A stretch of DNA of 64,000 nt from Clostridium sp. (lineage in GTDB: Bacteria > Bacillota > Clostridia > Clostridiales > Clostridiaceae): NCBI RefSeq assembly GCF_036569345.1, contig NZ_DATCQT010000090.1:4201-68200 (forward strand), given 5' to 3'. Below the pieces are notes generated by a model. The model saw only the letters and a list, made by a program, of their open reading frames with translations, searched no databases and had not been told where the DNA came from. This document shows positions 58,846 through 62,069 of the stretch, in pieces (the first letter of the stretch is position 1; every line of letters begins with the position of its first letter). The translations under genes and the position numbers were made by a program.

Positions 58846-59946
58846 CTAACTTCGCATTCCTAACATACCACCCACATTTGTTATTACACCTTTTAACTCC
58901 ATTATTGATATAGTTTCTAAAATATCGGACTTATCCTCTTGAATAACAAGTAACATTTCACCTAAAGACATAGGTTTTTCTTCTATTTGGATAAGTATAA
59001 TTTTTTCTAGCAATGTTAAATCATCATCTGTCGATACTGTATTTTCTTTTTTGTTATCTACCCTGGTCTTTAACATACAATCAACCAATAATTGAGAGGG
59101 TTTTAAATATATTTTAGCCCCTTCGTCAATTAATTTATTTGTGCCTACACTTTCTCTGCTATAAATACTATTCGGAGCCGCAAACACTTGTCTATTTTGC
59201 TCCTTTGCGTATGCTGCAGTCAAAAGGGATCCACTTTTTTCCCCTGCTTCCACCACTAAAAGTTTTGTGCTCCAAGCACTTATTAGTCTATTTCTCATTG
59301 GGAAATGATTAGCCTCTGGTTTTGTTCCTGGTGGGTACTCTGAAACAACCGCCCCTTTTTCTATAATTCTCTGCATAAGTTCTATATGTTCTTTTGGATA
59401 ACATATATCAAGACCACAACCTAATATAGCAACAGTATATCCACCTGCTTTTAGGCAAGCTGTATGAGCATACCCATCTATACCCTTTGCCATACCACTA
59501 ATAATTGGTATGTTATTTTTTGCTAAAAACTCAGCCGCATCCACTGTTATTCTTTTGCCATAATCAGTACATCTACGACTTCCAACAATAGATATTCCAA
59601 CACTATCTTTTATAATGTTTCCTTTATAATATAAAATAACTGGTGCTTTCTTAATATCCTTTACTTCAATTGGATATAAAGAATCTCCATATGTTAGTAT
59701 GTTTATATTTAATTTATTACATTCTTTTAGAACTTTTTCTGCGTTTGCTAAAGACTTAGAATTATAGATTATATCCGCAGTTGCCTTTCCTATCCCACTT
59801 ATGATTACAAGTTCAGATTTAGTAGCTTTGTAAATATTTAAAGGAGTTTCAAAAACATTCAATAATGCTTTTGCTATTACAGGACCTATACCATTAAGTT
59901 GTGATAGCCATAACCAATATATGGTGCTATTATTATATGTGACCAC
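58846..59946 (-). CDS. dprA: DNA-processing protein DprA (Smf)
   Basis: HhH-like GIG motifs, ISIVGSRRCTDYG, ISGMAKGIDGYAH, FPMRNRLISA, EAGEKSGSLLTA, GTNKLI, C-terminal winged helix. Confidence 0.93.
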   Translation of the reverse strand: MVTYNNSTIYWLWLSQLNGIGPVIAKALLNVFETPLNIYKATKSELVIISGIGKATADIIYNSKSLANAEKVLKECNKLNINILTYGDSLYPIEVKDIKKAPVILYYKGNIIKDSVGISIVGSRRCTDYGKRITVDAAEFLAKNNIPIISGMAKGIDGYAHTACLKAGGYTVAILGCGLDICYPKEHIELMQRIIEKGAVVSEYPPGTKPEANHFPMRNRLISAWSTKLLVVEAGEKSGSLLTAAYAKEQNRQVFAAPNSIYSRESVGTNKLIDEGAKIYLKPSQLLVDCMLKTRVDNKKENTVSTDDDLTLLEKIILIQIEEKPMSLGEMLLVIQEDKSDILETISIMELKGVITNVGGMLGMRS

Positions 59947-59947
59947 T

Positions 59948-61486
59948 CTATATCACCACCATATTCACTCGTTCCTTGTCCAAATCTCTACACATTAAGG
60001 CTTTTGCAATATGACGTTTGCTTAAATTCGCTTCACCATCCATATCTGCAAAGGTCCTCGCTACTTTTAAGAATTTATGAAAAGTCCTTGCACTATAATT
60101 AAATCTATCAAAAGCCATTTGTAGAAGTTTTTTGCTATCGTCCTCTAATATACAAAAGTCTTTAATTAAAGAGGGTGTCATTTCTGCATTTGAATTTATG
60201 CCCTCAACATTTCTATATCTTTCTCTTTGTATATTTCTAGCAAATTCCACCTTTTGTCTTAGTTCACTCGAACTAATTCCTTTAGAATTATCAGAAAGCT
60301 GTATGAAATCTACGGGTAAAACATATTTTTGAATATCTATTCTATCGAGCATTGGCCCTGATATTTTCTGCCTATATTTTAAAACTTCATAGTCCGTACA
60401 ATGGCATCTTTGTTGTCCATAATAACCACAAGAACAAGGATTCATAGCAGCTATAAGCATGAAACTTGCGGGATAAACATTGGTATATTTAACTCTAGCG
60501 ATAGTTACATTATTGTCTTCCATAGGTTGCCTTAAAGCATCTAAAGTTTTTTTATTAAACTCTGCAATTTCGTCTAAAAATAATACACCGTTATGCGCAA
60601 GCGAAATCTCCCCGGGCATAGCATTGTTTCCTCCACCTACAAGAGAGTTCATTGAAGCATTATGATGTGGTGCTCTAAAAGGTCTCTCTGTTATTAATGT
60701 GCCCTTATTTTTTAATACCCCTGACACGCTATATATTTTTGTTACTTCCAAAGCTTCGCTTTCCGTCATTGACGGTAGAATTGATGGTATCCTTTTAGCT
60801 ATCATTGATTTGCCACACCCAGGAGCTCCAGACATAATCAAATTATGTCCACCTGCTGCAGTTGCCACAATAAATTCTATAATAGCATCTTGGCCTTGGA
60901 CATCCTGAAAATCAAATAAGTATGGATTCTGTATTACATGATTGCATTTAAAATCTTCTAAAGAACTATAAGGACTTACCCCTTCCAAAAAAGAAATTAC
61001 TTCTGTAAGCTTTTCAAATCCGAAAATATTTATACCTTTTACTAAAGATGCCTCACGTATATTTTCCTTTGGAACAACTAAATTAGTAATTCCCCTTTTC
61101 TTAGCTTCTATTGTCATAGGTAGGATTCCCGAACATGCCCTTATATCTGCATTTAAAGAGAGTTCACCAATAAAACCAAAACTCTCAATTGCTTCTACAT
61201 TAATTTGTTTTGATTGTATTAATAGCCCTATTGCCATAGCTAAATCAAAGTGTGATCCACTCTTTTTGATATCTCCTGGTGAAAGATTTATAACAATCTT
61301 CATTCTTGGAAACTCATATTTAACATGAATAATAGCAGCTTCTAGTCTCTCCTTTGCTTCTTTTACAGAGGCGTCTCCAAGTCCAACAATTGATACAGAC
61401 GGCTGACCATATATAGTGTCCGTCTCAATTTTTACAACATACCCATCTATTCCGCTAATAGCAAATCCATTAACTACTGCTGCCAT
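59948..61486 (-). CDS. comM: ComM/YifB Mg-chelatase-like AAA+ ATPase
   Basis: KKSGSHFDLAMA, FIGELSL, GAPGCGKSM, RPFRAPHH, PGEISLAHNGVLFLDE, SGPMLDRID, KVARTFAD. Confidence 0.93.
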   Translation of the reverse strand: MAAVVNGFAISGIDGYVVKIETDTIYGQPSVSIVGLGDASVKEAKERLEAAIIHVKYEFPRMKIVINLSPGDIKKSGSHFDLAMAIGLLIQSKQINVEAIESFGFIGELSLNADIRACSGILPMTIEAKKRGITNLVVPKENIREASLVKGINIFGFEKLTEVISFLEGVSPYSSLEDFKCNHVIQNPYLFDFQDVQGQDAIIEFIVATAAGGHNLIMSGAPGCGKSMIAKRIPSILPSMTESEALEVTKIYSVSGVLKNKGTLITERPFRAPHHNASMNSLVGGGNNAMPGEISLAHNGVLFLDEIAEFNKKTLDALRQPMEDNNVTIARVKYTNVYPASFMLIAAMNPCSCGYYGQQRCHCTDYEVLKYRQKISGPMLDRIDIQKYVLPVDFIQLSDNSKGISSSELRQKVEFARNIQRERYRNVEGINSNAEMTPSLIKDFCILEDDSKKLLQMAFDRFNYSARTFHKFLKVARTFADMDGEANLSKRHIAKALMCRDLDKERVNMVVI

Positions 61487-62069
61487 TTACACTACCTCCT
61501 TGTATCTCATCAATCTTTATTTTAATATCGCTTTCTACAAAGTCCCTATATAACTTATGTTTATTATCTTCTTTAAAATATAATAAGATTGTTTCTGATG
61601 AAATAAGTTTATCCTTTTCCTCACCAATATATATTTTATAACTAGACCATTCATACTCTTCGGGCATTTTTACCATCTTTGCTCTAAATGGGTTTAAATG
61701 AATATATCTACTTGTCGTTAACATTTGTTTATCATCTTTAATTAATTCCGGAAAATATTTATCCTGCCATAAATGCCCTATATATTTATATTTTTTATTA
61801 AAGTAACGCGAATACATAGAATGTAATCTTCTTATTAAATCAGAAACCTCTTTATCATTAGCCTGTATTAATAAATGAACATGGTTTGTCATCAAGCAAT
61901 AACATATTAATTTATAGTTATATTTCTCATAATATTTTAAGCATTCTTTCATTAATATTAAATACATACCAAAATCAGCTTCGTCTCTAAATATATCGTT
62001 TCTATGATTTCCTCGCGATGTTATATGGTAACTTACTCCTGGAAACCATTCTCTTTTAGGTGTGACCAT
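61470..62069 (-). CDS. RAYT-like Y1/HUH transposase, overlapping the comM start
   Basis: PGVSYHITSRGNHRNDIF, YCLMTNHVHL, GHLWQDKY, YIHLNP, YEWSSY; 17-bp overlap with comM. Confidence 0.9.
   Translation of the reverse strand: MVTPKREWFPGVSYHITSRGNHRNDIFRDEADFGMYLILMKECLKYYEKYNYKLICYCLMTNHVHLLIQANDKEVSDLIRRLHSMYSRYFNKKYKYIGHLWQDKYFPELIKDDKQMLTTSRYIHLNPFRAKMVKMPEEYEWSSYKIYIGEEKDKLISSETILLYFKEDNKHKLYRDFVESDIKIKIDEIQGGSVNGSSS

Follow-up and report, generated by a model that had tools for sequence, protein, structure and literature searches.

An accessory Y1 nuclease–ComM–DprA operon within a co-oriented hairpin repeat array in Clostridium

The DNA considered here, referred to as the window, is a stretch of 64,000 nucleotides (positions 4201–68200 of contig C90) from a 4.7-Mb Clostridium genome that is assembled in 222 contigs. 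On its minus strand lie three consecutive genes, which encode a class-2 (RAYT/TnpA_REP-like) Y1 HUH nuclease (199 aa, 61470–62069, hereafter Y1), a paralogue of ComM/YifB (512 aa, 59948–61486) and a paralogue of DprA (366 aa, 58846–59946). We refer to the last two as the cassette-type proteins, or ComM2 and DprA2. The first-pass annotation of this DNA described three intact and tightly coupled genes, and this description holds: the open reading frames (ORFs) are found at these positions, their domains are complete according to profile searches, the Y1 and comM genes overlap by 17 nt (61470–61486), and a single nucleotide separates comM from dprA (59948 versus 59946).

Y1 matches Pfam Y1_Tnp (E = 2.5e-17) and the NCBIfam model REP_Tyr_transpos. 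In a profile search, ComM2 scores 550.7 bits against TIGR00368 (YifB/ComM), for a cut-off of 362.4, and it also matches the Pfam families ChlI, Mg_chelatase and Mg_chelatase_C; it consists of a Lon-like ChlI N-terminal domain, an AAA+ domain, a cysteine cluster and a C-terminal domain, and the Walker A (GAPGCGKS) and Walker B (VLFLDE) motifs can be read off its sequence. DprA2 scores at the level of an equivalog against TIGR00732 (242.3 bits, cut-off 191); it contains the Rossmann domain DNA_processg_A (PF02481, E = 1e-76), an N-terminal domain of the helix-hairpin-helix/SAM-like type and a readable GMAKGID motif. The DprA_WH domain of Pfam has no match in DprA2 and a weak one in the core DprA of the same genome (see below). 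DprA is a RecA loader that binds single-stranded DNA (ssDNA) and ComM is an AAA+ branch-migration helicase; both process incoming ssDNA in natural transformation.

A whole-genome search revealed that contig C18 encodes another DprA and another full-length ComM, at a locus where the gene order is rnhB, yraN (UPF0102), comM, dprA, topA, codY, rpsB, tsf, pyrH, frr, uppS. The first-pass annotation had remarked that rnhB, yraN, topA and codY are missing from the window and had proposed to look for a core yraN–comM–dprA–topA locus elsewhere in the genome; these genes are indeed on C18, together with the second comM–dprA pair. The pair of the window is therefore an extra, accessory one. The cassette and core proteins of this genome are 46% (ComM) and 38% (DprA) identical, and the genome also contains a ComEC gene. 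The core locus of Firmicutes resembles the cassette in the domain architecture of ComM and DprA, in the gene order and in the presence of a small nuclease-fold gene nearby, but this nuclease is the PD-(D/E)XK-like YraN in the core locus and an HUH Y1 in the cassette. In Clostridium bovifaecis (genome G252), both the core and the cassette systems look damaged, judging from their reading frames: the core comM (C1:1860038–1861553) is in two pieces with an in-frame TAG, and the ORF of the cassette ComM (6001–7851 of locus L021) continues into a C-terminal fragment of DprA, giving a 616-aa ORF.

The triplet is not peculiar to this genome. A scan of one genome per species with ComM2 returned 20 loci, and nearly all of those for which upstream DNA is available have Y1, ComM and DprA in the same order and on the same strand. 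The carriers include C. algoriphilum, C. algidicarnis, C. carboxidivorans P7, C. magnum, C. bovifaecis, Haloimpatiens and a metagenome-assembled genome of Cellulosilyticaceae. Cassette-type ComM (59–95% identity) is present in 39 of the 386 Clostridiaceae genomes scored (about 10%, the genome of the window being counted), and the identities are bimodal across these genomes: every copy that is not of the cassette type is at or below 49%, the core copy of the present genome being at 46%. The comparison of coordinates with those of a Y1 search, together with fetched DNA, places a Y1 gene directly upstream and on the same strand in 33 of the 37 informative loci, with a spacing between Y1 and comM of −20 to +150 nt and stop and start codons that often overlap. 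We counted as linked a locus whose Y1 is split by a 5.2-kb insert (genome G142) and another whose Y1 adjoins the N-terminal half of a split comM (G034). The exceptions are a decaying copy in G164 and the genus g56; in genome G279 of the latter, the gene upstream of the cassette comM encodes a cell-wall-binding protein, and this one subclade appears, from the genomes compared, to have no Y1 in the slot. The recurrence of the triplet in other genomes, on which the first-pass annotation had made its interpretation depend, is thus clear.

Conversely, no Y1 gene was found near the core comM at the 13 core loci that we examined by coordinate. The cassette is rare beyond Clostridiaceae (2 of about 385 other Clostridia, or about 0.5%); in one of these two (G525, from another family), the Y1 upstream of the cassette is only 31% identical to that of the window. 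In a scan of metagenomes with a Y1 alignment, 10 of 55 informative relatives have a cassette-type ComM directly downstream, and 9 of these 10 also show DprA in the fetched sequence. These relatives include a more distant subgroup, whose ComM is 53–57% identical. Solo Y1 genes, that is, those not linked to ComM, are more numerous than the linked ones. Two metagenome contigs (L033 and L034) are 99.99–100% identical to the window and come from the same strain, so that they afford no strain-level comparison.

The first-pass annotation had also suggested that ComM and DprA trees be built, and in these trees the cassette copies form one clade each, apart from the core copies. One long branch (SH-aLRT 100) separates 28 cassette ComM sequences from 27 core ones, which come largely from the same genomes, and the same split (SH-aLRT 100) is obtained with 31 cassette and 21 core DprA sequences. 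The topology of the subgroups is the same inside the two cassette clades, which indicates that ComM2 and DprA2 travel together; the synonymous divergence (dS) of the cassette DprA equals that of the cassette ComM. The cassette trees disagree with the species tree, a sign of horizontal transfer. The cassette ComM of C. algidicarnis is 88% identical to that of the window and its core ComM 59% identical to the core copy, and the cassette copies of two congeners (G287 and G299) are only 70% identical to those of the window. All three genes are under purifying selection, the ratio of nonsynonymous to synonymous divergence (dN/dS) being 0.04–0.10 for ComM, 0.16–0.29 for DprA and 0.08–0.30 for Y1. 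DprA and Y1 evolve faster than ComM.

Regarding the nuclease, the HUH motif of the window Y1 is H63-V-H65 and its catalytic tyrosine is found in R-Y122-IHLNP. Of 53 relatives, both linked and solo, 51 retain the HUH and RYIHLNP motifs, as do all ComM-linked copies. The Y---NP motif is described as a signature of class-2 (TnpA_REP-like) Y1 proteins by Quentin et al. (2018, PMC6006769). The protein scores above the cut-off of the REP_Tyr_transpos model NF047646 (86.4 bits, cut-off 80) and below that of the IS200 model (31.6 bits, cut-off 55). A search of the PDB with the sequence of Y1 alone gave no match. The AlphaFold (AF2) model has a predicted local distance difference test score of 86 and its best PDB match is 4ER8_A (E = 9e-8, template-modelling score 0.73 when normalised to the target, 166 columns); 4ER8 is the E. 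coli TnpA_REP bound to a REP hairpin, which is the nearest fold to that predicted for Y1. The present genome encodes two further short-type Y1 copies, which are 53–54% identical to that of the window, and two long-type copies (35–38%).

Linked and solo copies are intermixed in the Y1 tree, whose well-supported branches require a minimum of four changes of state. In several close pairs, Y1 has a dS 2–5 times as high as the ComM next to it (3.5 versus 0.66 for L013 versus L020). The mixing in the tree and the excess of dS indicate that the Y1 in the slot has been replaced repeatedly while ComM–DprA stayed. Y1 is an exchangeable, rather than a fixed, partner of ComM–DprA.

A box of sequence G[TG]CAA[TGA]A[ACT]T (for example TGTCAATAAT and TGGCAATAAT) is located 25–61 nt upstream of the Y1 start codon, at 62100–62115 in the window. 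Among the 53 Y1 genes compared, linked or solo, 20 have this box, against 0.5 expected from shuffled sequence; these 20 belong to diverse lineages, and the box is probably a shared promoter or operator element. A scan for promoters and terminators returned counts that are not above those of shuffled sequence.

Nucleotide homology with close relatives is limited to the three genes (58861 to about 62100) and to a dispersed repeat of about 200 nt; the homology between relatives ends 0–40 nt outside the triplet. The genome contains 12 copies of this repeat, all of them on the C90 island, on contigs of 3–5 kb or at the end of contig C70, and all C90 copies share the strand of the cassette. In the window, one copy is directly upstream of Y1 (62140–62340), a second is at the 3' end of a module made of an 86-aa ORF (62500–62790), a third is upstream of a collapsed copy of the triplet module (56085–56325) and an outlying one is at 37918–38095, while a 32-nt remnant of the conserved 5' box of the repeat (family D4) overlaps the stop codon of dprA (58819–58850), all on the minus strand. 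The same orientation is seen in 10 related loci: all 41 repeat copies counted there point the same way as the cassette, and as many as 12 of them are found within 13.5 kb.

When 25 copies are aligned, the plan of the repeat is apparent: a conserved 5' box with a small hairpin, then a TGGC-N4-GCCA hairpin followed by a G-run, then a long CTAC...GTAG hairpin, which is AT-rich and has a T-run. Compensatory changes are seen at eight base pairs of these hairpins. The G-run, which follows a small hairpin (GGGGTGAG, GGGGTCAG, GGGGTGTA) resembles the GGGGWSAS motif of TIRYT elements, and the hairpins carry ...GTAG, then a T-run, and CGTC, so that a relation of the array repeats to REPs is possible. 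We discarded the idea that the repeat is a protein-coding fragment, which is ruled out by stop codons in all frames, and a search of the repeats against Rfam returned no known RNA family or element. A sub-threshold Rfam match to 6A RNA (30.5 bits for a gathering score of 41.2, E = 0.011) is found at 62347–62397 (4548–4598 of locus L012, minus strand), between the two repeat copies upstream of Y1 and outside the repeat itself.

The repeat of C. carboxidivorans P7 has a different-looking sequence and the same plan. In this organism, the 9 genomic copies of the 15-mer CCCCAGGGGTGTAAA (one mismatch allowed) are all within 8.7 kb around the single cassette and all on the cassette strand, and a direct repeat of 150 nt (98% identical over a 113-nt core) brackets Y1–ComM–DprA plus a gene for an AAA-ATPase/PDDEXK_9 protein. 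In other species, this 15-mer also occurs immediately 5' of solo Y1 genes; the repeats therefore follow Y1 rather than ComM–DprA. Some solo relatives (L084, L098 and L099) have inverted repeats bearing GGGGTCAG-type motifs, which were found around none of the triplets. Unrelated genes upstream of the repeat have stop codons that overlap it: DUF2442 and PDDEXK_9 in P7, a PIN toxin gene on contig C112 of the present genome, and DprA in L015 and L020. In L015, L016 and L020, the last codons of DprA (...KKLGDS...) come from the repeat.

Between the repeats are modules of one to three genes: a PIN/UPF0175 pair, a HEPN pair, Abi_2, Rpn-like nucleases, DUF3990/DUF3791 and DUF4160/DUF2442, as well as ParE/Phd-like pairs, which were assigned by sequence and size only. 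These modules are shuffled between genomes. The same ones are downstream of the triplet in L015 and L014 and upstream of it in L017; one module reaches 92.5% identity between genomes in which the triplets share about 82%, and the homology of another stops 1–15 nt from the repeat ends. Between L015 and L013, homology starts inside the repeat upstream of the triplet and extends to the first bases of the one downstream, which indicates that the triplet itself behaves as one repeat-bounded module. In P7, the older, draft assembly of two (L035 and L036 compared) lacks one repeat-bounded DUF4160–DUF2442 module (L036 6503–7549) that is present in the complete genome, with breakpoints inside a 290-nt repeat; the difference may reflect either a true loss of the cassette or a collapse during assembly.

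Triplet modules are also duplicated, and extra partial copies occur in 5 genomes. In the window, a collapsed second copy (55580–56084, minus strand) joins Y1 codons ~14–33 to ComM residues ~265–383; its nucleotide identity is 93% to 60340–60691 and 83% to 61971–62028. There is a mosaic tandem copy in C. algoriphilum, and there are truncated second copies in Haloimpatiens and G206. The upstream region of Y1 and its first 44–85 codons are repeated 3–4 times in tandem in G034 (L095 18016–19405), with a period of about 300 bp, about 3 kb upstream of the intact Y1, and short 5' fragments of Y1 are also seen in the window (55890–56084), in L013 and in L081. The cassette comM of G034 (L095, G034:C1:2572000–2591500; 2037–14546) is split at residue ~214–218 by an 11-kb insert that encodes a large serine recombinase, an integrase fragment, an EcoRV-type restriction–modification pair and a Rep3-like initiator; the accessory comM thus also serves as an integration site.

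The neighbours of the triplet in the window are pieces of genes (the 3' part of galU, part of a PDDEXK_4 gene and an Rpn-like fragment) and small accessory genes (a HEPN pair and DUF3990/DUF3791). A two-gene module between repeats (56458–57536, plus strand) encodes a second protein in which a HEPN-like RNWLAH motif can be read, without a Pfam match. The 86-aa ORF upstream of the triplet (62793–63053, minus strand), which is also upstream of the triplet in L014, is coiled-coil-like (phrog_31728) and has a second copy at 38095–38410 (87.5% nucleotide identity), each copy being beside an array repeat. Just downstream of dprA are the galU 3' fragment (58506–58757) and an N-terminal fragment of a PD-(D/E)XK protein of the PDDEXK_4 family (58321–58509); an intact galU on contig C67 shares 88% identity with the former, and the same galU fragment is found 2–2.6 kb downstream of dprA in L020 and L029. 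The islands adjoin surface-polysaccharide or cell-wall-protein loci in several species. In the present genome, contigs C13, C112 and C10 and the end of C70 carry more repeat copies, beside a UPF0175/PIN pair and Abi_2-like, Rpn-like, DnaD-like and sigma-like ORFs, and are probably parts of the same fragmented island, which would abut a polysaccharide-synthesis locus.

We propose, with a probability of about one half, that the locus is an accessory and horizontally exchanged Y1–ComM2–DprA2 operon, itself a module of a co-oriented repeat array, in which Y1 acts on the repeats with ComM2 and DprA2. We infer the enzymatic steps and the cooperation of the three proteins from the conservation of the operon and from its context. 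Y1 would recognise the folded repeats and cut or rejoin one DNA strand there, DprA2 would coat the ssDNA that is released or exposed and load RecA, and ComM2 would extend the heteroduplex. As an outcome, repeat-bounded modules, including the operon, would be exchanged, duplicated or installed by recombination. Y1 and its repeats may then be the swappable specificity part of the system, and ComM2–DprA2 a generic engine for ssDNA recombination.

An ssDNA recombination module, in which the HUH enzyme acts on hairpin-bounded ssDNA and DprA and ComM drive integration, had already been put forward in the first-pass annotation. This interpretation is supported in part: the triplet is conserved, has its own ComM and DprA clades and is tied to hairpin repeats; the mechanism is hypothetical, and the nuclease is not a fixed partner, since Y1 lineages are swapped. 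This swapping also argues against a tightly co-evolved protein complex, and several other observations weigh against our proposal. The same repeats are also seen with solo Y1 genes, in the absence of ComM and DprA, so that these two proteins are not required for the arrays, and the genus g56 retains a cassette-type ComM(–DprA) next to which no Y1 gene was found. The repeats include a hairpin that resembles an intrinsic terminator, and it may be that their co-orientation and their position at the 3' ends of genes result in part from a terminator function. No bounding inverted repeats or conserved ends were found around the triplet in the loci that we compared. Last, the shuffling could be plain homologous recombination between repeats.

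The arrays bear some likeness to chromosomal integrons, which also consist of small, mostly co-oriented modules that are rich in toxin–antitoxin genes, each followed by a structured, imperfectly palindromic repeat, and in which the order of the modules varies from one genome to another, the breakpoints being at the repeats. The attC sites of integrons also act as folded single strands. However, integrons rely on IntI and on attC/attI sites, which are not seen here; no integrase family matched in the Pfam-annotated neighbourhoods of the triplets, the candidate recombinase is the HUH Y1 and site-specific recombination is only putative. It is conceivable, although we regard it as unlikely, that Y1, the three-hairpin repeats, DprA2 and ComM2 form an integron-like gene-cassette platform that operates on ssDNA: the HUH enzyme would excise or accept modules as ssDNA, possibly from natural transformation (ComEC is present), and DprA2/RecA and ComM2 would install them. 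To our knowledge, Firmicutes are without integrons. If such a platform existed, it would be a recombinase-plus-array system in Firmicutes, and it would give a host-level function to the RAYT-type 'domesticated transposases'.

The other systems to which the locus can be compared are those of Y1 nucleases. The E. coli REPtron (YafM, PDB 4ER8) also has a class-2 Y1 with HUH and Y---NP motifs, a fold that is the closest to the one predicted here, few and divergent copies and adjoining hairpin repeats, but its REPs are hundreds of dispersed units of 20–40 nt, whereas the repeats here are composites of about 200 nt in one local, co-oriented array. ComM or DprA as operon partners are not reported for REPtrons in the papers that our searches returned, whereas here Y1 heads such an operon; REPtrons were described by Nunvar 2010 and Ton-Hoang 2012, as cited in PMC6006769. 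The dispersed, high-copy REPs tagged with GTAG or CGTC that flank the gene in REPtrons were not found here: the genome has 12 repeat copies in one island. We rejected the hypothesis of a classical genome-wide REP family, which was not found either in the present genome or in C. carboxidivorans P7.

TIRtrons, or TIRYTs, are described by Di Nocera et al. (2013, PMC3733652) and Quentin et al. (2018, PMC6006769) as class 2.1-like Y1 genes with terminal inverted repeats that often carry GGGGWSAS. They resemble the present system in the G-run motif of the repeats, in the inverted repeats of some of the solo relatives and in the lack of a dispersed REP family. On the contrary, direct repeats surround the triplet, where TIRYTs have inverted ones, and the proteins considered here are short (about 190–200 aa) and lack the helix-turn-helix or DnaA-like C-terminal domain that is described for many subclass 2.1 members. 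The IS200/IS605 elements (IS608, ISDra2) share the Y1 HUH fold and presumed ssDNA hairpin substrates, but they have Y---Q, TnpB, subterminal hairpins at the left and right ends and near-identical dispersed copies, whereas the triplet has Y---NP and none of the rest; near-identical copies were seen only as local partial duplications. We therefore rejected an IS200/IS605-type transposon with passenger genes, which would be expected neither from the Y---NP motif nor from the lack of conserved ends, of inverted repeats around the triplet and of dispersed identical copies.

Full-text literature searches returned no description of a Y1–ComM–DprA operon, and the RAYT surveys, searched by keyword, make no mention of DprA or Mg-chelatase/ComM neighbours. 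The statement in the first-pass annotation that no system of this composition had been described is consistent with these searches. What is new here is that the Y1 slot has been swapped repeatedly, that the operon is a module of a three-hairpin repeat array, and that modules differ in position from genome to genome, with breakpoints of homology at the repeat ends.

A different function, which is possible but in our opinion improbable, is that of an anti-invader defence module. DprA2 would capture foreign ssDNA (rolling-circle plasmids, ssDNA phages, the conjugative T-strand or transforming DNA), ComM2 would translocate on it and Y1 would cleave its hairpins, the island being a defence island. 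The patchy spread of the cassette (10%), its horizontal transfer and its frequent decay are consistent with this idea, and so are the toxin–antitoxin pairs and the Abi_2, HEPN, Rpn and PD-(D/E)XK genes in the neighbourhood, and the faster evolution of DprA and Y1 compared to ComM. DprA-like proteins belong to known defence or toxin–antitoxin systems, and DprA2 scores 214 bits against ShosA and 113 bits against PsyrA. However, DprA2 scores as a full equivalog of genuine DprA, and the DprA domain (ShosA, PsyrA) is the only match to Shosta and PsyrTA: the neighbours match neither ShosT, the phosphoribosyltransferase partner of ShosA, which is absent, nor the RecQ-like PsyrT. Y1 matches no PADLOC model and ComM2 gives only weak AAA-domain matches; dN/dS does not exceed 0.3 and, over whole genes, gives no indication of positive selection; and a defence function leaves unexplained the dedicated local repeats that follow Y1 genes. 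The assignment of the operon to a known defence system found no support, as no PADLOC model fits beyond generic DprA-domain matches and the PHROGs matches are generic only. If the function is nevertheless defence, the operon would be a new ssDNA-directed immunity system.

It is also conceivable, but doubtful, that the three genes are not functionally coupled, and that a spare comM–dprA pair has been repeatedly invaded on its upstream side by a selfish, TIRYT- or IS-like Y1, which would be kept as a promoter source or be hard to lose. The polyphyly of the Y1 lineages in the slot, which are mixed with solo copies (at least four changes being forced by supported branches), the Y1 dS that is 2–5 times the ComM dS in several close pairs, the excess of solo over linked genes, the inverted repeats with GGGGTCAG-type motifs of some solo copies and the g56 clade with no adjacent Y1 are all in favor of this explanation. 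It fits poorly with the linkage in 33 of 37 loci, which is always on the same strand, at −20 to +150 nt and with frequent overlaps of stop and start codons, whereas no Y1 is found beside any core comM checked. Neither does it account for the divergence of the Y1 copies within a genome (about 53% amino-acid identity, unlike the near-identical copies of insertion sequences), for the purifying selection on Y1 and its intact active site in every linked copy, or for the presence of a distant Y1 (31% identical) in the same slot in another family.

Last, that the triplet is a cargo or a recombination module of a prophage, a plasmid or an integrative-conjugative element is very improbable and was rejected: although phage- or replication-like fragments are present in the island (a primase-like ORF, and a DnaD-like ORF on contig C13), no integrase, capsid or conjugation gene is conserved beside the triplet in any genome compared, none of the 72,556 plasmid and 50,697 phage records searched carries a ComM more than 46% identical, and the homology between relatives is limited to the three genes and the repeats.

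The locus bears on the long-standing question of the host function of the RAYT/TIRYT 'domesticated transposases'. In the operon described here, a RAYT-type enzyme is found under selection with private copies of two ssDNA proteins of transformation, amid its own hairpin repeats. The locus suggests a pathway in which an HUH cut at a hairpin would be followed by DprA/RecA loading and by branch migration by ComM, and C. carboxidivorans P7 is a tractable carrier of this operon. If our proposal is true, it would provide Clostridia with a new route to assemble and exchange toxin–antitoxin and defence-type islands.

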